Source: a virus
Lineage: Duplodnaviria > Caudoviricetes
DNA: 47,480 bases
Virus record (IMG/VR): IMGVR_UViG_3300037962_000579
Coordinates: 1 to 47,480 of that record
Strand: one strand, 5' to 3'
Part shown: positions 5,618 to 44,563 of the stretch, piece by piece
How the letters are laid out: each line of letters opens with the position of its first letter
Numbering within the stretch: the first letter of the stretch is position 1
The notes under the pieces: model-generated
Databases searched by the model: none
Told to the model about the DNA's origin: nothing
What the model saw: the letters and a program-made list of their open reading frames with translations, nothing else
Made by a program: the position numbers and the translations under genes

Positions 5618-5886
5618 TGAATACAAAAAGAAAAATAAAATTTAATATTATAAAGTTTTTAAGATATACTAATAGACTTACTGCTTGGCAAAAAGTTGCA
5701 TCTCGAATAGGATATATGGGTGCAGGATTTTTAATAGCAGCACAGTGGACTATAGAACCTATATTATACATTTTAGGTTTTACATGTGTTATAGTGCAAG
5801 TATCTTCTCGTAAACAATGGAACTTAGTTGCATTAAATTTTAATGGTCTTTTTGCATGGATAAAACATTTTATTACTAATTTATAA
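5617..5886 (+). CDS. Small integral membrane protein between nrdB and nrdA
   Basis: Two to three hydrophobic segments; TGATG and TAATG overlaps with nrdB and nrdA. Confidence 0.6.
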   Translation: MNTKRKIKFNIIKFLRYTNRLTAWQKVASRIGYMGAGFLIAAQWTIEPILYILGFTCVIVQVSSRKQWNLVALNFNGLFAWIKHFITNL

Positions 5887-7652
5887 TGTGGAATAACGAT
5901 TGGAAAAAAGGTATTGACTATCCTATATGGGGTGATACTGATGTTTATAAAAAAACTATTGCGGGAGGATACTTATTTAATGGTGAATCTCCTCGCGATG
6001 CTTATATGCGTGTTGCTAAAACTGTATCAAGGCGTTTATATAAACCAGAATTAACTAAAATATTTTTTGAGTATATTTGGAAGGGCTGGCTAAATTTAGC
6101 GTCTCCTGTGTTGTCTAATACAGGCACAGACCGAGGTTTACCTATTAGTTGTTTTGGTATTGATGTTGGTGATAGCATAACTGATATTGGAACTAAAAAT
6201 TTAGAAATGATGTTACTAGCTAAACACGGCGGGGGAGTTGGTATCGGAATAAATATGATTCGTCCTGCCGGAGCAAAAATTACAGGAAATGGAACATCAG
6301 ACGGAGTCGTACCATTCTGCAAGATCTATGATTCAACAATCCTTGCTACAAATCAAGGATCAGTTAGACGCGGAGCTGCATCGGTCAATATCAACATTGA
6401 ACACGACGATTTTGAAGAGTGGCTTGAAATACGAGAACCTAAAGGAGACGTTAACAGACAATCACTTAACCTACATCAATGCGCAGTTGTTGGTGATAAG
6501 TTTATGCGAAAACTTGAGCAAGGAGATAAAGAAGCGCGAACTAAATGGAGTAAACTGCTTAGAAAGCGAAAGTCAACTGGAGAACCGTATATTCTCTTTA
6601 AAGGAAATACTAACAAATACAATCCGCAAGCATACAAAGAAAATGCATTAAAAGTACATATGACAAATATATGCAGTGAAATAGTATTGCATACAGATGA
6701 GTCGCATAGTTTTGTTTGTTGCTTATCATCATTAAATTTATCAAAATATGAAGAATGGAAAAATACAAACCTTATTTATGACGCTATATGGTTTCTTGAT
6801 GGCGTACTTGAAGAGTTTTTACAAAAAGCTAAAGGGCTTAAGGGGTTTGGTAATGCCGTTAGGTCTGCAGAAAAAGGGCGTGCTTTGGGCTTGGGTGTTC
6901 TTGGTTGGCACACTTACTTACAGCAAAACGGTATACCTTTCGAAAGCTTACAGGCACAGTTTGAAACGAGACGTATTTTTTCACAAATTAAAATTGAATC
7001 TGAACGCGCTAGTAGAGCGCTTGCAGAAGTTTATGGAGAACCTTTGTGGTGTCGTGGAAGTGGTTTACGTAATACTCACTTACGTGCTATTGCCCCTACT
7101 GTTAGTAATAGTAAGCTTAGTGGAAATATATCACCGGGTATTGAACCGTGGGCGGCAAATGTGTTTACAGAGCAAAGCGCAAAAGGAACATTTATAAGAA
7201 AGAATAAAGAACTTATTAAAGTTTTAAGAAAAGTTGGAATTAATAATCAAGAAACGTGGGATAAAATATTATCAGATGGCGGGAGCGTCCAAGATATAAA
7301 AGAGCTCGATGATTGGGCTTATATAAATAAAAAACTTGTAAAATTATCAGAACAAGAAAATATTGAAAATGAAAGTTATGATAAAGTAAAGAATGTGTTT
7401 AAAACATTTAAAGAAATAAACCAATTAGAATTAGTAAATCAAGCTGGTATTAGACAGCAATATATTGATCAATCGGTTAGTCTTAATTTAGCTTTTCCTT
7501 CAGAAGCTACACCTAAATGGATAAATCAAGTACACTTAGAAGCCTGGAAAAAAGGGATAAAAACATTGTATTATATGCGTACAGAATCTGTATTAAGAGG
7601 AGATATAGCCGCTAAAGCTATGAGTCCGGATTGTATAAGTTGCGACGGCTAA
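5886..7652 (+). CDS. nrdA: Class I ribonucleotide reductase alpha subunit (no ATP cone)
   Basis: ASPVLSN, ISCF, GGGVG, TNICSEI, VCCLSS, APTVS, KTLYY, C-terminal CISC. Confidence 0.95.
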   Translation: MWNNDWKKGIDYPIWGDTDVYKKTIAGGYLFNGESPRDAYMRVAKTVSRRLYKPELTKIFFEYIWKGWLNLASPVLSNTGTDRGLPISCFGIDVGDSITDIGTKNLEMMLLAKHGGGVGIGINMIRPAGAKITGNGTSDGVVPFCKIYDSTILATNQGSVRRGAASVNINIEHDDFEEWLEIREPKGDVNRQSLNLHQCAVVGDKFMRKLEQGDKEARTKWSKLLRKRKSTGEPYILFKGNTNKYNPQAYKENALKVHMTNICSEIVLHTDESHSFVCCLSSLNLSKYEEWKNTNLIYDAIWFLDGVLEEFLQKAKGLKGFGNAVRSAEKGRALGLGVLGWHTYLQQNGIPFESLQAQFETRRIFSQIKIESERASRALAEVYGEPLWCRGSGLRNTHLRAIAPTVSNSKLSGNISPGIEPWAANVFTEQSAKGTFIRKNKELIKVLRKVGINNQETWDKILSDGGSVQDIKELDDWAYINKKLVKLSEQENIENESYDKVKNVFKTFKEINQLELVNQAGIRQQYIDQSVSLNLAFPSEATPKWINQVHLEAWKKGIKTLYYMRTESVLRGDIAAKAMSPDCISCDG

Positions 7653-7663: not shown

Positions 7664-8017
7664 TTAATACGTCCATAAAACATTAGGTGATTTATCAGGA
7701 TCAACATCTATATGAATAAATGTGCCTGCAACCCCTATACGATTAATTCCTAAATCTAAACAAATATCAATAATAGCAAAGCGGTCTTTTGAATTATTAC
7801 ATGCAATATCCACCGCTAATCCTTTTATATGAGACGATGAAGATGTGCCGCCAACATTAGCATTATGATTTTCGGTTCGGTATCCTGAATTTATTTTAAT
7901 AGGCTTATCAAATTTTTCTCTTAACTCATCTAGTTTATTTAAAAAATCTTTATCCATTAATTTTCCACTACCTACAACATCAGGTGAATCAAATTCACTA
8001 TAATTAAAATATTTCAT
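7664..8017 (-). CDS. Peptidase M15-family zinc peptidase (probable endolysin)
   Basis: INSGYR...SSHIKGLAVD...FIHID Zn ligands. Confidence 0.85.
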   Translation of the reverse strand: MKYFNYSEFDSPDVVGSGKLMDKDFLNKLDELREKFDKPIKINSGYRTENHNANVGGTSSSSHIKGLAVDIACNNSKDRFAIIDICLDLGINRIGVAGTFIHIDVDPDKSPNVLWTY

Positions 8018-8026
8018 ATTTTATTT

Positions 8027-8437
8027 TTAAAAAGCAGAAGCAGTATTTATTTCGTTTATTGCTTCTTGTATATCATTTAAATCTGCCGGTAAAGTTAAAT
8101 CTAATCCAGCTTTAAAACTTTCTTCTACACTACCTTCTTTAAATATTATAATAGTAGGTACCATACGAACTTTATATTTTTTCTTTGCTAAAGGTGCTTT
8201 TGCAATATCAACCCTATAATATTTAGCATTTTTTATTTTATTCCAATCATTAAAACAATTAGCTTCATTAAATTCAGCCCAAAATTCTACAACAATTGTT
8301 TCTAAATTATCATCACCAAAAGCAGAACTATTGCTTATTTTTTCTTCAAAATTATTATCGTCTATCCAATACTTATCTGGCACATCACTTGATGTTAAAG
8401 ATACTATTGCAATTAAAATAAATATTAAATTTTTCAT
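8027..8437 (-). CDS. Exported thioredoxin-fold protein lacking CxxC
   Basis: Signal peptide; VVEFWAEFN where WCxxC is expected; RVDI, MVPTIIIFKEG cis-Pro strand. Confidence 0.65.
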   Translation of the reverse strand: MKNLIFILIAIVSLTSSDVPDKYWIDDNNFEEKISNSSAFGDDNLETIVVEFWAEFNEANCFNDWNKIKNAKYYRVDIAKAPLAKKKYKVRMVPTIIIFKEGSVEESFKAGLDLTLPADLNDIQEAINEINTASAF

Positions 8438-8721
8438 TATTGATTTTTTTGTATTTCATAAAGACGCTCGTCTATTTTATCAAGCTTTTCTTTTATTTCT
8501 TCGACATCGTCTTGCGTGTCGAGTATAGTTGTTCTTACAAGTTCATCTTTTAAATCGTATTCTGTTCTTGATATTTCTGGTTTTGGAAGCTCTTTAGCTT
8601 CTGCTATATCAGATTTTAACGCAAACCACATACTAGCGGCAGTAATTACAAAGCTTATAATTATGCCAATAGTTTTAAGGTCAAGAGTTACTTTTGTATT
8701 TTCTCCAATTTGTTGTGCCAT
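8437..8721 (-). CDS. Single-pass membrane protein with coiled-coil C-terminus
   Basis: TM IGIIISFVITAASMWFAL followed by heptad repeats. Confidence 0.65.
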   Translation of the reverse strand: MAQQIGENTKVTLDLKTIGIIISFVITAASMWFALKSDIAEAKELPKPEISRTEYDLKDELVRTTILDTQDDVEEIKEKLDKIDERLYEIQKNQ

Positions 8722-8724
8722 GAT

Positions 8725-8772
8725 TTAAAACCAACAGATGCTACAACCTATGCATAAAGGACACTGTTTCAT
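8725..8772 (-). CDS. Candidate 15-aa Cys-rich micropeptide MKQCPLCIGCSICWF
   Basis: ATG overlaps the upstream stop (TAATG); stop ends 3 nt before the next start; fills the gap. Confidence 0.5.
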   Translation of the reverse strand: MKQCPLCIGCSICWF

Positions 8773-9959
8773 TATTTTAAAGTTAAATTTATTCCAAAGT
8801 TAGTTTGATATATTTTTGAATCCCAGAATTTAGTGTATTCTCCTTCAATAAATATACCTAAAGATTTAGTTACTTTCCACCCAAACATTAAACCCGCCTG
8901 GTAATCGTCCCATTGTTCAAGGCTTGAATCTTTTTTTAATCCGCCTTTACCCCAATTATTACGATTTAAGTAAGTAAAATCTTGTTCACCGGATACATAT
9001 TTATGATAAGGTAATATCCAATTACCGTAAGCATGTAACCAAAAATTATTTTTATAATGATAAAAATCAAAACCTGCAATTGGAGCAACTTCCGCAAAAG
9101 CATCAAGTCCTTCCCATACTTCTTCATTAAAACGGTTCATAAGATTACCAAATATTCTATCTCTAAAATCTCTATCACCATATGCTACTATTTCGCCTCT
9201 TTCATTACGCCAAATCCAATCAAAAAAAGTATCTCCTGTATATTCATTCGTATATGTAGTTGGCTCGTCTGTAAAACCGTAAAAATATCCTAAGCTATAC
9301 CAAGGATTTAAAGGTTCTTCTAAATTTGTTTCTGGATTTATAAATGTTTCATTTAACCATATTTCTATAGGATTATAGCCATAAGGCTTTTGATGTGTAC
9401 GATATATCGCGCCAAGTGATACACTAAATTTTTTACCAATAGGTAATCGCGCTCTTAGTTCCCCAGAAGTATATTCAAAACCTACTTTACCAGATTCTCT
9501 AGTTTCAAATTTAGCTATATGATATTTACCGGTATGTCTAACAAATAATCTTTTATTAGTAAATTTATCACCGTTTACTCTTTCTTTTTCCCAATGTAAT
9601 AAATATTCTAAACCTTTTACAGCTGCTGTAGGCGCAGATAAACCAACATTGTTTTCAGTGCCATTATAAAAATTAGGTTTACTTTCGTAACCAAACCGTG
9701 CTAATTTACGTATACCTATTCCATATCTATAATCAAATGGGTGATAAGTTGTTTCATCTATAACGTTTGGTATTGCGTATAAGTCTTCTGGATTTGTTCT
9801 TATAAAATAATCAGAAGTTTCTAATTTTGCATTAGCTATATTACCAGCTGCATAAAATGTACCGTATTTTAAAAAATCTTTATATACATTTTTAAAAAAC
9901 TGTGCGTTAGTATTAAATGATATAATTAAAGGAAATAGTACTAATATTATTTTTTTCAT
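8772..9959 (-). CDS. Putative outer-membrane beta-barrel protein
   Basis: Sec signal ...SFNTNA|QF; aromatic-rich alternating strands; terminal strand FGINLTLK. Confidence 0.6.
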   Translation of the reverse strand: MKKIILVLFPLIISFNTNAQFFKNVYKDFLKYGTFYAAGNIANAKLETSDYFIRTNPEDLYAIPNVIDETTYHPFDYRYGIGIRKLARFGYESKPNFYNGTENNVGLSAPTAAVKGLEYLLHWEKERVNGDKFTNKRLFVRHTGKYHIAKFETRESGKVGFEYTSGELRARLPIGKKFSVSLGAIYRTHQKPYGYNPIEIWLNETFINPETNLEEPLNPWYSLGYFYGFTDEPTTYTNEYTGDTFFDWIWRNERGEIVAYGDRDFRDRIFGNLMNRFNEEVWEGLDAFAEVAPIAGFDFYHYKNNFWLHAYGNWILPYHKYVSGEQDFTYLNRNNWGKGGLKKDSSLEQWDDYQAGLMFGWKVTKSLGIFIEGEYTKFWDSKIYQTNFGINLTLK

Positions 9960-34152: not shown

Positions 34153-36384
34153 TTAAATTATTTTTGATCGTACACCTCGGTTATCATATTTTTTAATACC
34201 AAGACTTATATTTTTTATTTGTTTTATTTGACTTGGCCTATACAAATTTTTATTACAAGCCATTATAGCTAATCCAGAACTAATTGATGCATCAAATTTT
34301 GTTCTATTATTAATATCAAATTTTGCCCAATCTTCTAATGTTCTTTGAAAATACATATTACCGTAATCTTCATTAATTAATCCTACATGATTTTCAATAT
34401 AAGATTCTATAGCAGCGGCATGCGCTTGCTTTATATCATAAGAAGTATTTGGTATACCGCCTATTTCTTTTTCTGATATTGATAAATTATTATATATTTT
34501 GTCAGGACGATTCATTGAAAAACCTCTATATCCTCTTCTTTTTAAATGATACAATAATCTTGGCTTATTATTTTCTGCAAGAACCGGCATACCATAAAAA
34601 ACTAATGCCATAAGTATATCTTCAAAAAATATTTCTGCGGTTTGAGGTCTTGCTACATATTCTAAAAAAAACATATTAGAAGGAGCGTTTTCCATACTAA
34701 ATTTAGTAAGACCGTGCAATGCACCGTTAGAACCAATTTTATCAACTGTACCAGATATATCATAGCTATCACAACCAAAAGCACCAATATGCTCATTTGC
34801 TGGATAACGAATACCTTGTTTTAATATTACGCGATTTTGTAAATTTATTTCAGGTATCCAGCTTATGTTAAATCTTCCTTTATTATTTGGTATAAATTGT
34901 ACTTTACTATCTTTTACACCATTTTGCCATTGAAAATTACCGCGTGTTACAACATTAGTTCTTTTTAAATCTTCATTATAATCTATTTGCTCATATATTT
35001 TAGTTAGATTAAATAAAGATTGTTTTGTTTCATCTCTAAAAGCGTGCTTTTCTGTACGCGGAAATTGTCTATAAAATTCATTTAAAGTATCTTGGTCATT
35101 CTTTAAACCTTCAACTTCATTTTCCCAATAATTAATTACACCCTGTTTGATGTTATACCCATCTGGCGTAAAAGTTTTTTCTGTTGGCGTATCGAAGACA
35201 GGTAATCCATAAGAATCAATGTATCCTTCGTAGTTCCATTCCATAGGTATGAACAAAGAATAGAGTCCTGAACTTGTTTGTCCGTTTCTATTTCGTTTAG
35301 TAACGTCTGAATCATTGTATAATTTTTTAAAATTTTCACCGCCTTTATCTAATGCATTACTAGTTGAGCCCATCATGCATTTTCCAACTATATTACTTCC
35401 TAATCTTAATGTCGTTTTGGTAACTCTCCAGTTGTTGAGTATGTTCTCTGGCTTCTCCCATTTACCTGCCTCGTCGTGGATGAGGAGAGATAGTTTCTCT
35501 CCGTCGTACGAGTTGTCGCCTGTATTCTTCCAGTCGATGGTTGTGTCGAGCCCTGTGAGCTCCTCGCTCCCCTCAATACGCTCGTTTGCCAATAATTTCT
35601 TTCTGGTGAATTTACTTGCCGGGACACGATATGCCAATTCGGTTTTTGGTCTATCCATACCGTCTTGTATGGGTTTGAAAAAAAACGGATAGTTGACGGA
35701 TATTGGTACCACTTTATCGGTAAACATCTTCTTTGCATCAGCCCCTGATTTGGACAGTATCCCGTACCGTGAGTCAGATGATATTGTTGCCAAATTGACA
35801 ATTTCACCTGAGGCCATAAAAGAGAATCCTGAACGTCTGTTTTTGAGATAGCACAGCCCGTAGCATCGCAAGTCTGCTTTGCAAGCTTCCCAGAATATAT
35901 AGAATAATCTGTTTGCTTCCCTAAAGTCTGGCTTCCCAACATCAATCTTGCTCCACTGCAAGTACATATAATGAGTCCCAGTAATATAAACAGGTAAACC
36001 TTTATTATAAAACCAAAAGCCTTCTTCGCGTCTTTTAAATTCTTCATCAATATAGTCATACCATTTATCTTTAAAATCTGCTGGATATTTATTCCAATCA
36101 AATACACTTTTAATTTTTTGCAATTGTTTAGAATATTCAAAAACTTCCCAATATTGTTCTTTAATTTTATTAGAGCGTTTATAAATATTTTCTTGTAAAG
36201 GCAAAGCTATTTTTAAATTTTGTATTTCATATATCTCACCTATCTTCCCGCTTCTACTAATAACAACAACATCGTGTTCTTCATTATAACCATATTCCCA
36301 TTTTTTATATCTATTTAAAGTTGATATAGTTTTTGGTTTTATATGATTATCTAATATTTTATATAAGCTTTGTTTGTATTTCAT
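34153..36384 (-). CDS. terL: Terminase large subunit
   Basis: LKNRRSGFS Walker A variant, LLIHDEAGK Walker B, GCDSYD nuclease motif, LAENN. Confidence 0.88.
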   Translation of the reverse strand: MKYKQSLYKILDNHIKPKTISTLNRYKKWEYGYNEEHDVVVISRSGKIGEIYEIQNLKIALPLQENIYKRSNKIKEQYWEVFEYSKQLQKIKSVFDWNKYPADFKDKWYDYIDEEFKRREEGFWFYNKGLPVYITGTHYMYLQWSKIDVGKPDFREANRLFYIFWEACKADLRCYGLCYLKNRRSGFSFMASGEIVNLATISSDSRYGILSKSGADAKKMFTDKVVPISVNYPFFFKPIQDGMDRPKTELAYRVPASKFTRKKLLANERIEGSEELTGLDTTIDWKNTGDNSYDGEKLSLLIHDEAGKWEKPENILNNWRVTKTTLRLGSNIVGKCMMGSTSNALDKGGENFKKLYNDSDVTKRNRNGQTSSGLYSLFIPMEWNYEGYIDSYGLPVFDTPTEKTFTPDGYNIKQGVINYWENEVEGLKNDQDTLNEFYRQFPRTEKHAFRDETKQSLFNLTKIYEQIDYNEDLKRTNVVTRGNFQWQNGVKDSKVQFIPNNKGRFNISWIPEINLQNRVILKQGIRYPANEHIGAFGCDSYDISGTVDKIGSNGALHGLTKFSMENAPSNMFFLEYVARPQTAEIFFEDILMALVFYGMPVLAENNKPRLLYHLKRRGYRGFSMNRPDKIYNNLSISEKEIGGIPNTSYDIKQAHAAAIESYIENHVGLINEDYGNMYFQRTLEDWAKFDINNRTKFDASISSGLAIMACNKNLYRPSQIKQIKNISLGIKKYDNRGVRSKII
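35406..36047 (-). CDS. Candidate overprinted lipoprotein-like ORF (+1 frame of terL)
   Basis: Frame open for 244 codons; MKNLKDAKKAFGFIIKVYLFILLGLIICTCSG start; terL codons turn C/G-ending in this interval. Confidence 0.4.
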   Translation of the reverse strand: MKNLKDAKKAFGFIIKVYLFILLGLIICTCSGARLMLGSQTLGKQTDYSIYSGKLAKQTCDATGCAISKTDVQDSLLWPQVKLSIWQQYHLTHGTGYCPNQGLMQRRCLPIKWYQYPSTIRFFSNPYKTVWIDQKPNWHIVSRQVNSPERNYWQTSVLRGARSSQGSTQPSTGRIQATTRTTERNYLSSSTTRQVNGRSQRTYSTTGELPKRH

Positions 36385-36653
36385 TTTGATCTACCTTCTG
36401 CAAAACCTTTAAATGAATTAGCTTTTGTTTCTATGGGCTTATCATTTAATAAAGCCTCTTCTTCTTCAATACGTCTTAGTATTTCAAACGCATCAAATAT
36501 GGCTAATTTTTTTGTAGCTGCAGCATTTTTTAAACGGTCAGCTGATATATCATCTTCTGAATCTACTATAGGTTCTTTTGCTACCTTTATTAATTCATCA
36601 ACTGCCACTTGCCCAGCTTGTATTATATTCGATTTCGTTTTTTTTGTATTCAT
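36381..36653 (-). CDS. Probable terminase small subunit
   Basis: Small helical protein overlapping the terL start (ATGA). Confidence 0.5.
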   Translation of the reverse strand: MNTKKTKSNIIQAGQVAVDELIKVAKEPIVDSEDDISADRLKNAAATKKLAIFDAFEILRRIEEEEALLNDKPIETKANSFKGFAEGRSK

Positions 36654-37203
36654 ATTTAATTGCAATATCTCTAGTTTTCATACGATATAATCTATTATTA
36701 TCTATAATAAATTCATATTCGCTATTCGGAGTAAAACATATTATATCTCCCTCGTTTACTTTAGCGGCTTTTAACGAACTATTTCCATATTTTAATATAC
36801 CAATATGCTTTTGTTCTTTATTAACGCTTAAATTGTTTTTTTCAGCAAGGGGTTTTACAAAACAAAAATCATACGGAGCTTTCCATTTATTTTTGCTTTT
36901 ATATAAAAATATTTGGTCAGGATAACAAAAATATAAATCTTCTTTAAAATAAGAAGTTGAATTTTTTTCATTACCTCTTATATCATAAAATCTTCTAAAA
37001 ACATTATGATGTACAATTACTTCATCATTTATATTAATATTTGTTTCGCCAACTAAAGGTATTGATTTTACAATACCTACGCGATTTACAAATTTATGGT
37101 CTTCAATAGAAGTATTTATGATTAATTCTTTTGCACCTATTTTAACAGTATTAGTATATCTGCCATTTTTAGGTTGAATTATAAAATTAAATAAACTTTG
37201 CAT
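36598..37203 (-). CDS. Tandem GroES-like co-chaperonin (201 aa)
   Basis: Two units of FIIQP/CFVKP...GIV/GIL...DEV/GDII..., GroES-like strand order. Confidence 0.5.
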   Translation of the reverse strand: MQSLFNFIIQPKNGRYTNTVKIGAKELIINTSIEDHKFVNRVGIVKSIPLVGETNININDEVIVHHNVFRRFYDIRGNEKNSTSYFKEDLYFCYPDQIFLYKSKNKWKAPYDFCFVKPLAEKNNLSVNKEQKHIGILKYGNSSLKAAKVNEGDIICFTPNSEYEFIIDNNRLYRMKTRDIAIKYEYKKNEIEYNTSWASGS

Positions 37204-37700: not shown

Positions 37701-38153
37701 TTATTGTTTTCTAATTGTTTGGAACTTTTCAGCTCCACGTGAACCAAAATAGGCTACGTATACAGTTATTAAAAGCGATTTTAAAAGATCTACCCAGCCG
37801 GTACTAATTTCAAAAGGTATTTTAAAACTATCTAATAAAATTAAAATAACTAAAGATATTGTTAAAAATATAAGAGTCATAGGTCTTGTATTTTTACTTA
37901 ACCACGAATCTGACTTCATATCGCTTGACCATCTTTTTGAAACTTCTTGCATTTCAACCATATCTTGTTCTAAAAGTTTTAATGCTTTTTCTTTATCTTC
38001 AACTGTTATTGTTTCGTCTTTTGATATAAGATTTTTAACTATACCTAAAACACCACTGTTAGGTAAAACATCACCCACACCCCCTACAATATTAGGAGCT
38101 ACGTTAGATAAAAATTTGCCTACTTTAGTATCTTTAAATTTTTTCTTTGACAT
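37701..38153 (-). CDS. Putative holin (GTA 3TM-holin-like)
   Basis: RWSSD..SDSWLSKNTRP, two TM helices, YFGSRGAEK. Confidence 0.65.
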   Translation of the reverse strand: MSKKKFKDTKVGKFLSNVAPNIVGGVGDVLPNSGVLGIVKNLISKDETITVEDKEKALKLLEQDMVEMQEVSKRWSSDMKSDSWLSKNTRPMTLIFLTISLVILILLDSFKIPFEISTGWVDLLKSLLITVYVAYFGSRGAEKFQTIRKQ

Positions 38154-41271: not shown

Positions 41272-41718
41272 TTATCTATTTTTATCTTTATTTATTAATT
41301 TTATTGCTTTGCTTAATACTTTATCTGTATAAGTATTACCAAGCATTATTTTGTTTCTTTGTGTGCTAGTAGGTAAATCTTCTTTACCTAATAAAATTCT
41401 ATATATTCTACTTATAAGTTGTTTGCATTTAAAAGAAGTTTTATATATATTATATTTTTGGTTGGTTCTATTTCTTTTTCGCCAAACAACTATCCAACCA
41501 TTTCTTACTAATCTTTCCCACCGATGTTTATCCCAGCTCATAGCATAAACACCGTTTATATAATCTTGTCTTGTAAATAAATTTATACAATCAAAATATA
41601 TAAGTAGCTCTAAATCAGCATCTTTTAAATTATTTGTTTTACACGCCCAACGTCTTACAACTCGATAATGTTTAAAAAGCCCTATGTCTCTTAAATCATT
41701 TGGCTCTAATCTTTTCAC
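41272..41718 (-). CDS. Conserved hypothetical protein (possible winged helix)
   Basis: DLELLIYF...LVRNGWI...YKTSFK pattern; coupled to groES. Confidence 0.6.
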   Translation of the reverse strand: MKRLEPNDLRDIGLFKHYRVVRRWACKTNNLKDADLELLIYFDCINLFTRQDYINGVYAMSWDKHRWERLVRNGWIVVWRKRNRTNQKYNIYKTSFKCKQLISRIYRILLGKEDLPTSTQRNKIMLGNTYTDKVLSKAIKLINKDKNR

Positions 41719-41975
41719 AATACAATTACTACGTCTTGTTGTTTTATGACTAAATAAATTTCTTTATCTAACTCTATATTAAACCCAGCATGCTTATCAT
41801 AAAATATACTATCACCTGCTTTTACACCTTTTACAAGTTCTCCAACAGATTTTATTATACCTTTTCTATACCTTATATCTTCTTTTAATTTATCTGTAAG
41901 TAAAAGTCCACCTTTAGTTTTCGTGGGTTTTTCTTTTATTTCTTTTATAACTAAATAAATACCTATAGCTTGCAT
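41715..41975 (-). CDS. groES: Co-chaperonin GroES
   Basis: KTKGGLLL mobile loop, SVG, VKAGD, adjacent to groEL. Confidence 0.85.
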   Translation of the reverse strand: MQAIGIYLVIKEIKEKPTKTKGGLLLTDKLKEDIRYRKGIIKSVGELVKGVKAGDSIFYDKHAGFNIELDKEIYLVIKQQDVVIVL

Positions 41976-41977
41976 AA

Positions 41978-43522
41978 TTATTTTATATTATTAATTACAC
42001 AATCTGTAGATAATATTGTAGTTGCAACAGATACTGCGTTTTTTAATGCTGTTTTTGTTACAAGCACTGGGTCAACAATACCTTTTTTAAACATATTTAC
42101 CGTTTTTCCAGTAGTAACATCAACGCCATAACCTTTTTTATTATCATAAACAAAATCTATATCAGAGTTTTGAAGTATTTTAAAATAAGGTTCACTTATT
42201 GCTTTTTTAAATATATTAGCTCCCTGTGTAGTACTGCTTATATTTTTTGCAGCGTTAAGAAGAGCTACGCCGCCACCGGGCACAATACCTTCTTTAACAG
42301 CGGCTTTTGTAGCGTGTATCGCATCTTCAACACGATCTTTCTTTTCCTTATGCTCAACATCTGAGTTTGCCCCTACAGTTATAACCGCTACGTTTCCGGA
42401 AAGTATACCTAATCTTTCTTGTAGCTTATCGGTCTTTAAACTCGGGGTGTTGCTATTTAAATGCTCTTCTATAATATTAATTCTTTCTTTAGAAGCTTCA
42501 GGTATGTCTTTTATTTTTAATACAGTTGATTTTGAATCAATAACAGCTTTTTCACAAGTACCTAACATATCTGGTTTTATAAGATCTATATCATCACCAA
42601 ATTCTTCGTTAATGTGTAAAGCCCCTGTAATTGAAGCAATATCATCTAAAAAATCTTTTTTCCAAAGGTTAAAGCCAGGCGGAGTTACCACACACGCTTT
42701 TATATTACCTTTAAGTTTATTCATTATTACAGCAGCCATAGGTTGTTTTTCTAATTCAGCTATAATAAGTATTGAACGATTATTTTCAACAGCATATTCT
42801 AAAATAAACTGTATTTTTCTAATCGTAGTAATAGGAGAGCTCACGAGTAGTACTAATGGATTGTTAAGCGTGCATGTTTGTTTTGCTACGTTGGTCACAA
42901 AATTAGGGTGCGCATATCCTTGATTTATTTGTGAGCCTTTTACTACATCAACACTTGTAATCTCTGACTTAGTATCGGGGTCCATAAGAACTACCCCATT
43001 TTTACCTACTTTATTAAATGCTTCGCCAATAACACTGCCTAATTCAATATCATTGTTTGATGATATAGAAGCAACTTGATTAAGCATACTACCTTTTATT
43101 GGCACAGCTATTTTATCTAGGTATTTAACAACAGACCCGTAAGCCTTAATTATTTCATTTTTTATATCTCTTATAGAGCTTTTATCCTGTTGTTGTTTTG
43201 CATATTTTAATATTGCATGCGCAAGAACTGTTGCGGTTGTTGTACCATCACCTGCTTCACTAACTGTTTTTCTTGCAGCTTCTTTAATTAATGTAGCCCC
43301 AATATTTTCTACTGGGTCTTGCAGATTTATAGCATTTGCTACTGTAACACCATCTTTTGTTATTGTTGGTCTGCCTATTACATCTTCTAATATAACACAC
43401 TTGCCGCTGGCTCCTAATGTAGAGCCAACAGCCTTTGTGAGTTTGTCAATTCCATTAAATATCTTATCTTGAGCATTACTGCCAAAGTTAAGATCTTTAA
43501 TTTGATCTTGTGAATTTTGCAT
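41978..43522 (-). CDS. groEL: Chaperonin GroEL (phage-encoded; no GGM tail)
   Basis: ITKDGVTVA, AGDGTTTAT, RVEDA, GIVPGGG, GIVDP..V. Confidence 0.95.
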   Translation of the reverse strand: MQNSQDQIKDLNFGSNAQDKIFNGIDKLTKAVGSTLGASGKCVILEDVIGRPTITKDGVTVANAINLQDPVENIGATLIKEAARKTVSEAGDGTTTATVLAHAILKYAKQQQDKSSIRDIKNEIIKAYGSVVKYLDKIAVPIKGSMLNQVASISSNNDIELGSVIGEAFNKVGKNGVVLMDPDTKSEITSVDVVKGSQINQGYAHPNFVTNVAKQTCTLNNPLVLLVSSPITTIRKIQFILEYAVENNRSILIIAELEKQPMAAVIMNKLKGNIKACVVTPPGFNLWKKDFLDDIASITGALHINEEFGDDIDLIKPDMLGTCEKAVIDSKSTVLKIKDIPEASKERINIIEEHLNSNTPSLKTDKLQERLGILSGNVAVITVGANSDVEHKEKKDRVEDAIHATKAAVKEGIVPGGGVALLNAAKNISSTTQGANIFKKAISEPYFKILQNSDIDFVYDNKKGYGVDVTTGKTVNMFKKGIVDPVLVTKTALKNAVSVATTILSTDCVINNIK

Positions 43523-43910: not shown

Positions 43911-44057
43911 CTATTTTTTATGCAATTTTTGTATTGCAAAATTATATGTTAAGCTTGCTCCTTTATGTTTAACAAACTTACCACTATGTTTCATAAGCTT
44001 TGGTGCTTTGCCAGGTGTTTTCATCCAATGAAAACCTTTTGGAGCTTTTACTTTCAT
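43911..44057 (-). CDS. Small basic protein (48 aa), not in ORF track
   Basis: MKVKAPKGFHWMK...KHKGASLTYNFAIQKLHKK; ATGA overlap with the upstream gene. Confidence 0.6.
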   Translation of the reverse strand: MKVKAPKGFHWMKTPGKAPKLMKHSGKFVKHKGASLTYNFAIQKLHKK

Positions 44058-44563
44058 TGTCGCTTTAAATTTGTAAGTTTCTTTTTCATTTTCTTTGCTT
44101 TAGGAAATGCATGATCTTTTGGATGCATATCTTTAGAGTGCATGTCTTTTGGCCCCTCATGTCCTATATATTTTAGCCCTTTATTTTTATTTGCTAACTC
44201 TTCAAGCCCCCTTTCATGATCCATTACTTTTTCAAACATTTCTTTTGGCTTGCCTATATTAAAATCCATAGCTTTTGCATTTTCAATATCTAATTGTTTA
44301 AAAGGCATATCGTTATTTTTTGTACCTCTATTACCCATAACTCTAAGTATTTTACCTTGCACTTTCATACCCATAGCTTTTGGATGCATATCCTTAGAAT
44401 GCATATCTTTAGAATGCATATCTTTAGAGTGCATATCTTTAGAGTGCATATCTTTAGTATGATAATCTTTTGAATGCATGTCCTTAGGATGCATATCTTT
44501 CATTTTATATTTTTCATATATTTTTGATCCCTGCAACGGCATCAATCCTTTTTTACCTGGCAT
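44054..44563 (-). CDS. Lys/Met/His-rich pentapeptide-repeat protein
   Basis: KDMH(S/P) repeats in two blocks. Confidence 0.7.
   Translation of the reverse strand: MPGKKGLMPLQGSKIYEKYKMKDMHPKDMHSKDYHTKDMHSKDMHSKDMHSKDMHSKDMHPKAMGMKVQGKILRVMGNRGTKNNDMPFKQLDIENAKAMDFNIGKPKEMFEKVMDHERGLEELANKNKGLKYIGHEGPKDMHSKDMHPKDHAFPKAKKMKKKLTNLKRQ
44381..44500. repeat. Eight tandem 15-bp repeats (KDMHS units)
   Basis: AGA(A/G)TGCATATCTTT-type units; two more near 44120-44150. Confidence 0.9.

Follow-up and report, generated by a model that had tools for sequence, protein, structure and literature searches.

The IMG/VR virus record IMGVR_UViG_3300037962_000579 (Duplodnaviria; Caudoviricetes) was analysed as one stretch of 47,480 nucleotides (47 kb, 82% complete), hereafter the window. 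Profile searches with the window's proteins identified a terminase of phrog_6681, a portal, GroEL/GroES, a primase-helicase and a ribonucleotide reductase. Our subject is the terminase large subunit gene terL (34153..36384, minus strand; phrog_6681, E 1.2e-170), whose 743-aa frame is intact and which had no sequence match in the PDB, together with ORF1 (35406..36059, minus strand), a gene of 217 aa nested in the +1 frame of terL codons 109–326. By terL, the nearest named relatives are MW202828 (64.6% identity), Elemovirus (45.7%), and Maribacter phage Panino, Pachyviridae and Pervagoviridae (31–43%). These relatives, several Bacteroidota bins with related contigs and seawater runs suggest a flavobacterial host and a marine habitat, although many other bins are unrelated. 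The group is large, with an estimated ~9,300 stored stretches in IMG/VR.

We compared terL of the window with 80 relatives at 74–99% identity (n = 81). Dereplication at 95% removed 15 of the 81 rows and left 66 relatives, of which the 46 without a +1 stop in terL codons 115–263 are termed carriers and the remaining 20 non-carriers; 54 terL loci below 70% identity form the outgroup.

The open +1 frame of terL

A preliminary description of this DNA had singled out a 244-codon +1 ORF as the longest nested frame and had remarked on a patch of C/G-ending codons in terL, and both observations hold. The listed ORF (35406–36140) measures 244 aa from a TTG and lies within 266 stop-free codons (terL codons 60–325), the longest same-strand alternative-frame run among 22 large genes tested, with nrdA the runner-up at 153 codons. 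GC content at third codon positions (GC3), taken per 25 codons, is 0.36–0.68 in terL codons 126–325 vs 0.04–0.24 in codons 1–125 and 426–743, and of all 500-base bins in the window, 35501–36000 has the highest GC content (0.44). The probability of meeting no stop over codons 110–325 is 10^-11.4 under terL's codon usage outside the region (14.8 stops expected) and 10^-10.9 when the usage is that of relatives without the ORF; over codons 115–325, a null tilted to the observed GC3 gives 10^-9.9 (13.3 stops expected), and across the 46 carriers the GC-matched null expects 485 stops.

The start had been placed at ATG 36047. The conserved start is instead ATG 36059, four codons upstream, which is present in 41/46 carriers vs 9/20 non-carriers; the part of the listed ORF before it (36060..36140, minus strand) is open here but unconserved, with stops at terL codons 88, 91 or 102 in most relatives. 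The preliminary description expected related terL genes to lack +1 stops if the frame is real and to carry scattered ones if it is not. Stops proved to be all or none: codons 115–263 hold 0 in 46/66 relatives, 3–8 in 20/66, and 1 or 2 in none, and a second sample, which overlaps the first, gave 57/82 with 0 and 25/82 with 3–8. Median nucleotide identity among carriers is 77%. At sites 149, 196 and 225 stop avoidance is specific to the +1 frame, with stops in 0/46 carriers vs 9/20, 9/18 and 7/20 non-carriers. In the full sample a long +1 frame is found in 59/81 genes, ending at terL codon 298–328 in 49 and at 264–276 in 10, and two further relatives retain the leader and end at codon 196; forms of ORF1 measure 87, 155–167, 186 and 210–220 aa. 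An antisense ORF (35315–35692) was rejected as the selected frame, as carriers retain TTA/TCA codons that close it. Programmed frameshifting from terL is not favoured: inspection by eye showed no fitting slippery site, and the ATG is enriched.

The raised GC3 ends where each form of ORF1 ends. It falls from 0.63 to 0.23 at the stop of the class ending at codon 298, from 0.68 to 0.14 in the 321–328 class and from 0.33 to 0.12 in the 264 class, reaching background directly past the stop codon of each length class. A recombination tract from a higher-GC phage, which the preliminary description had raised as an alternative, is therefore unlikely, since a tract would ignore +1 stop codons. They would be respected if a +1 product were under selection, because third positions of terL are second positions of ORF1; C or G at these positions turns Ile, Leu and Met into Thr, Pro, Ser or Arg in ORF1. 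Suppressed synonymous variation, which had been expected over the overlap, was borne out in the leader (0.67–0.70 of expectation) and near the end (0.76–0.84) but not in the body (1.07–1.28), where the strong signal is a directional shift of codon choice.

Starred branches of the clade tree carry at least six changes in the state of the ORF, and in independent pairs the presence of the ORF goes with a T-C-S motif in the leader (5.6/6) and with raised GC3 (5.9/6). The open frame is absent from 54/54 outgroup terL loci and from 6/6 isolate records. As terL is the older frame, ORF1 arose by overprinting within the clade; gains and losses are not separable from the state counts. ORF1 is de novo overprinted, with a narrower distribution than its host frame, and we are close to certain that it is a real gene.

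ORF1 has no family match in Pfam, PHROGs or NCBIfam; its best ESM Atlas score is 0.77, below the usable level; and the sole tblastn match in phage records is terL of MW202828, in a frame with 7 stops. A protein search returned 200 matches, none with Pfam or an informative name, and the eight longest of these proved on inspection to be either nested forms or chimeras joined to terL by a frameshift. The library, Atlas and protein searches thus found no structural or stand-alone homologue. A promoter and terminator scan stayed at chance level (11 vs 8.4). We found no earlier report of the overlap in terL in the literature covered, which did not extend to subscription papers or to the supplements of flavobacterial-phage papers, and the latter could list it. 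Within 10 kb upstream of terL no compensating gene was exclusive to non-carriers. A whole-contig association (17 carriers, 20 non-carriers) reflected mainly ribonucleotide-reductase class and was rejected as a clade effect of non-carriers picked by pattern.

Leader and tail of the predicted ORF1 product

From ATG 36059, ORF1 opens with a basic n-region (residues 1–20, net charge +4; 36000..36059, minus strand), followed by a hydrophobic h-region (residues 21–31; 35967..35999, minus strand) and the T-C-S motif (residues 33–35; 35955..35963, minus strand), in which Cys34 is the candidate lipid acceptor. It thus has the n-region, h-region and conserved Cys of bacterial lipoproteins, the substrates of signal peptidase II (SPII), and the translation contains the basic n-region, h-region, LIICTCSG string and S/T/R/Q-rich tail previously described. 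The earlier caveat that T-ending codons make +1 frames hydrophobic by default does not account for this leader: in the h-region carriers fix ACT at T135 (42/42) and T137 (46/46), where non-carriers drift (7/20 and 12/20), and its mean hydropathy is 2.75 in carriers vs 1.74 in non-carriers. The motif behaves likewise, with Thr in 44/46 carriers vs 5/20 non-carriers, Cys in 46/46 vs 7/20 and Ser in 42/46 vs 4/20. Both the h-region residues and Thr33-Cys34-Ser35 are fixed in carriers through codons that non-carriers do not prefer; Cys32 is dictated by terL and hence uninformative. At the −1 position of the lipobox, terL's Tyr codon allows only Thr or Ile, and the choice of Thr in 44/46 favours lipidation at Cys34.

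Past the leader, too, composition is selected, with hydropathy of −0.25 to −1.04 vs about 0.0–0.2. The long forms alone carry a basic tail rich in S/T/N/Q/P/R (terL codons 263–325; 35409..35597, minus strand), which is the source of the GC peak and consists of 43% STNQ, 17.5% KR and 1% DE (hydropathy −1.04 vs 0.03). An AlphaFold model shows a single N-terminal helix (residues 2–41) and no fold, residues 38–209 falling below pLDDT 50, so that ORF1 beyond its leader is predicted to be basic and disordered. Stop avoidance and leader selection support the earlier proposal of an overprinted, selected, membrane-targeted gene, and its product is very probably exported or membrane-anchored.

Alternation with a stand-alone lipoprotein

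About 27–37 kb downstream of terL lies a lysis/envelope cassette that encodes a 94-aa single-pass protein, a thioredoxin-like exported protein, a 350–400-aa exported protein and often an M15 endolysin. In the window the cassette is marked by the Peptidase M15 endolysin (7664..8017, minus strand; PF08291 E 1e-19; phrog_894 endolysin). The 94-aa protein (8437..8721, minus strand), whose family is found in 35/64 records, is hydrophobic in a single N-terminal segment and charged in its C-terminal portion; it had no spanin family match in library scans, and from its topology may be an i-spanin-like partner. Directly upstream of its gene, four genomes (G002, G027, G040, G041) carry a stand-alone lipoprotein gene that is absent from the window. 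This lipoprotein has a canonical [GAS]C box, a Tyr-rich middle and a low-complexity basic S/T/N/P/K tail whose make-up resembles that of the ORF1 tail, and its structural model (pLDDT 58) has a short predicted beta-hairpin.

In a comparison covering 36 contigs and additional relatives, the lipoprotein and the long form of ORF1 seldom occur together. Among genomes found through terL, the lipoprotein is present in 1/17 with the long form, 4/5 with a short form and 1/13 without the ORF (G031 and G092, whose form was not determined, are left out of the counts). The lipoprotein search yielded 34 contigs, of which 6 were without a terL match, 3 could not be read and G054 carried a frameshift; the 24 readable ones comprise 15 without the ORF, 9 with a short form and 0 with the long form, which makes up 49/81 of the terL sample. 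On a 49-row tree (9 rows close to others dropped, G038 added; in the outgroup rows the lipoprotein is present and the ORF absent), the long form goes with lipoprotein absence in 6.1/7 starred pairs, with 0.0 opposite (median p 0.031). These patterns suggest that the long form is probably a functional replacement of the stand-alone lipoprotein. The alternation also lends indirect support to a spanin-like reading of ORF1. Because the lipoprotein adjoins the i-spanin-like gene near the endolysin, outer-membrane disruption is favoured as the shared job of the two, a tentative choice based on gene order and topology.

We therefore propose, at a probability of roughly 0.45, that ORF1 is an envelope protein that takes the place of the stand-alone lipoprotein, its probable task being to break the host's outer membrane during lysis. 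On the late terL message, ribosomes would initiate internally at ATG 36059 to make the ORF1 product, which would be exported by Sec and, by a slight balance of the evidence, lipidated and cut by Lgt/Lsp at Cys34. The long tail would provide the low-complexity basic segment also found in the stand-alone lipoprotein, which would make the latter dispensable and open to loss. The 94-aa membrane protein encoded next to the endolysin might be the partner with which either ORF1 or the lipoprotein forms a spanin-like pair.

Several observations weigh against this proposal. The surveyed o-spanins, in the accessible part of the survey, are embedded in i-spanin genes and not in terL (PMC6139136). The lipobox consensus is [LVI][ASTVI][GAS]C, with working deviations also known (PMC6139136, as far as its accessible text goes); the boxes of ORF1 (I/T-C-T-C at Cys34, L-I/T-I/T-C at Cys32) miss it, and ORF1 is non-canonical at −1, unlike the phages' own lipoproteins. 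No box with T or I at −1 was matched in the accessible supplement of that survey (PMC6139136), where boxes are stored without the Cys, so that the search is uninformative. ATG 36059 has a G at −3, and RNA contigs match only pieces across 35673–36450 (best share 0.20) and cannot reveal the frame. As synonymous diversity is not reduced in the body of ORF1, the residues there matter little. The stand-alone lipoprotein is itself functionally unassigned (752 matches without Pfam or name; an Atlas cluster of 1017 viral members), and it shows no homology to ORF1 beyond the leader (HHalign probability 15%). Exclusion is incomplete, with both genes in 4/5 short-form genomes and in the long-form G036, and among ORF-less genomes chosen regardless of the lipoprotein 12/13 have neither, 11 of them from one clade. 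The 24 lipoprotein rows of the tree test came from the lipoprotein search, and a tree from a shorter alignment gave 3.8/4 pairs (p 0.125).

The selection and alternation data would also fit if an exported or lipid-anchored ORF1 replaced the lipoprotein in a different job, namely receptor masking or a late envelope change that blocks re-adsorption or excludes other phages. T5 Llp is a comparable case, with Cor another lipoprotein of the exclusion type. The thioredoxin-like and 350–400-aa exported proteins of the cassette are not standard lysis genes, and repeated gain or loss suits an accessory, host-dependent role. Set against this, the lipoprotein sits beside the i-spanin-like gene near the endolysin, neither it nor ORF1 adjoins a receptor-binding gene, and weak sequence constraint suits specific receptor binding poorly. 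Searches of Pfam, PHROGs and NCBIfam, where ORF1 matched no family, gave no support for an exclusion factor, and we consider this role unlikely.

About as unlikely, in our estimate, is a leader that serves as an uncleaved signal anchor, leaving an inner-membrane protein whose cationic, disordered periplasmic tail sets the timing of lysis or uses its charge to weaken the outer membrane, with no lipid involved. The non-canonical box fits an anchor, 17 uncharged residues separate the last n-region Lys from the next Arg/Lys, and the mature part has a net charge of +16. The residue after C-S-G is mostly P, L, V or A (P25, L8 and V8 of 46 carriers) and not the Gln that is enriched after signal peptidase I (SPI) sites in Bacteroidetes, an enrichment put at >60% in P. 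gingivalis in the accessible part of the source (PMC5837995). An anchor, however, needs no Cys, and Cys34 is fixed in 46/46 through codons rare elsewhere in terL (TTG 0.07, CTG 0.02); nor would it call for the smaller of the two possible residues at −1, which is the one taken.

Alternatively, ORF1 may be a young, weakly functional gene, translated but harmless rather than useful because its product is exported and its tail is not prone to aggregate, its alternation with the lipoprotein owed to shared ancestry and sampling. The frequent changes of state, five length classes, unreduced synonymous diversity in the body and ascertainment in the lipoprotein test all suit such a gene. We nonetheless think it improbable, given complete stop avoidance across carriers as divergent as these against a strong A/T bias, the lack of opposite pairs in the tree test, and the fact that loss of the start would be a cheaper route to harmlessness. 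Finally, it is very improbable that no protein is made and that the open frame is an accident of a nucleic-acid constraint or of a GC-rich recombination tract: the region is GC-rich and the two halves of terL yield different trees, so recombination occurs, but the GC-matched null expects 13 stops in the window, GC3 ends at each class's stop, the h-region fixes T-ending and not C/G-ending codons, an outgroup gene with GC3 0.63 still has 4 stops, and an Rfam search found no match.

Other envelope genes vary among these phages. The exported thioredoxin-fold protein (PF00085; 8027–8437, minus strand) is conserved directly after the 94-aa gene and might act on cysteines of envelope proteins. The 350–400-aa exported protein has a plain signal peptide in the window (8772–9959, minus strand) and a lipobox in six ORF-less genomes (G008, G010, G013, G014, G022, G024), where it could fill the lipoprotein role. 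Exported proteins of 224–920 aa lie near the 94-aa gene in G006, G007, G008, G009, G012, G013 and G014; they were found only in the clade that has neither the nested gene nor the lipoprotein, and their C-termini resemble type IX secretion signals. The holin (phrog_3427; 37701–38153, minus strand) lies 30 kb from the endolysin, whose position varies among relatives. Beside the holin in L100 (~2.5 kb upstream of terL) and L118 is a membrane protein of 140–146 aa that appears similar to the gliding/T9SS motor protein GldL.

A second nested frame and known systems

ORF2 (35136..35315, minus strand), a 59-aa frame in the +1 register of terL codons 357–416 with a constrained core at ~35194–35280, is likely a second overprinted gene. 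Codons 369–397 have the lowest synonymous diversity of terL (0.35–0.59), in carriers and non-carriers alike. Fixed codons include Y385 TAC in 66/66 (background 0.23), F378 TTC in 65/66 (0.09), L377 TTG in 61/66 (0.07), and G373 GGA, P380 CCT and P395 CCT in 66/66 each; I389 is never ATA (background 0.72), a codon that would place a stop in the +1 frame. That frame is open in 66/66 and the other four alternative frames are closed in 66/66, with an ATG at codon 357 in 57/66. Openness alone is weak evidence because stops can arise at no more than two sites (P 10^-0.8 per sequence). The outgroup uses codons freely here and has stops in 36/54, and a few in-group loci at 71–75% identity also lack the constraint. 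RNAalifold gave a weak consensus (−6.4 kcal/mol) with compensatory change in 0/16 pairs; several fixed positions are unpaired in the model, and one hairpin keeps all its pairs. A protein search returned 27 matches, none with Pfam, and we found no similarity of ORF2 to the stand-alone lipoprotein. We consider a protein of 46–70 aa the likely product; an RNA or DNA element is the less likely reading.

In the ribonucleotide reductase gene nrdA (5886–7652), the +1 frame is open over codons ~133–254 in 11/13 genomes, with 7.8 stops expected, making a candidate third overprinted gene of 120 aa (6289–6651, plus strand). A second +1 run of 149 aa (6748–7197, plus strand) is open in the window and 3/12 other genomes and broken in the rest. 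Elsewhere in the window, a 201-aa GroES-like gene (phrog_13932; 36598–37203, minus strand) lies just upstream of terL, a small GroES-like gene and GroEL are found at 41715–41975 and 41978–43522 (minus strand), and a 169-aa protein with repeated K-D-M-H-S/P units is encoded at 44054–44563 (minus strand). The terL records of Elemovirus, Panino and phi38:1 (L082, L083, L085) run to 877–880 codons, with an N-terminal extension matching the place of a separate 94-aa gene of the window (36381–36665), a possible terS-terL fusion.

A more speculative reading, which we think doubtful, is that the +1 frames of essential genes serve this clade as a nursery of new genes, two of them in terL and a third in nrdA; ORF1 would have grown by stop loss (87, 155, 186, 217 aa) to the point where its tail could replace an unrelated, conventionally encoded lysis lipoprotein, and sister lineages would then have lost that lipoprotein repeatedly. 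If so, a de novo overprinted gene displacing the function of an old one would be visible in living lineages. Whatever the product does, carriers of several lengths and non-carriers on one tree form a natural series in which to follow gene birth, lengthening and loss within a catalytic domain, along with the bending of the host gene's codons by a new gene. As gene callers report terL alone here, an abundant marine phage group carries unannotated genes, and terL codon statistics in the clade are distorted by two overlaps. Bacteroides and Croceibacter phages are listed among genomes without spanins in the accessible part of the spanin survey (PMC6139136). Should ORF1 indeed replace the lipoprotein, the way in which Bacteroidota phages cross the outer membrane could be tested on it.

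Embedded lysis genes are reportedly present in ssRNA phages as well. There are precedents for overprinting, for nested lipoprotein genes and for ORFs within terL, going by the accessible parts of the sources (PMC6139136, PMC8227390, PMC8776804, PMC5837995). The closest parallel in position is the unrelated phage T7 (NC_001604), whose genes 19.2 and 19.3 lie wholly within terminase gene 19, both in the +1 frame like ORF1 and ORF2, at offsets of 646 and 1183 relative to the start of gene 19. Annotated as hypothetical, they measure 85 and 57 aa vs 217 and 59 aa here, and HHalign found no homology between the pairs (0.1% and 0.3%).

In architecture, ORF1 recalls lambda Rz1 in Rz and T7 18.7 in 18.5, which are likewise nested out of frame and have a signal peptide with a Cys and a disordered mature part rich in Pro/Ser/Thr (PMC6139136, accessible part). 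It departs from embedded o-spanins, defined as lying inside or overlapping an i-spanin gene, in that its host gene is terL, its candidate partner lies 27 kb away, its box is non-canonical and roughly a quarter to a third of relatives have lost it; it is also about twice as long as the two o-spanins (95–106 aa) in the accessible supplement rows of the survey (PMC6139136). Unimolecular spanins of the T1 gp11 type have a C-terminal transmembrane segment, whereas ORF1 has a hydrophilic tail, a variable end and no C-terminal helix. The stand-alone lipoprotein family shares with ORF1 a leader with a Cys, an aromatic middle and a low-complexity basic tail, and differs in its canonical lipobox, its predicted hairpin and its own gene in the lysis/envelope cassette. 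ORF1 resembles de novo overprinted viral genes at large in its restricted distribution relative to an old host gene, shifted codons, proneness to disorder and accessory nature (PMC8227390, accessible part). The curated set described there is drawn from small and medium eukaryotic viruses, whereas ORF1 overlaps the ATPase of a tailed dsDNA phage for 217 codons and, unlike that set, comes in several length classes and is linked to the loss of another gene.

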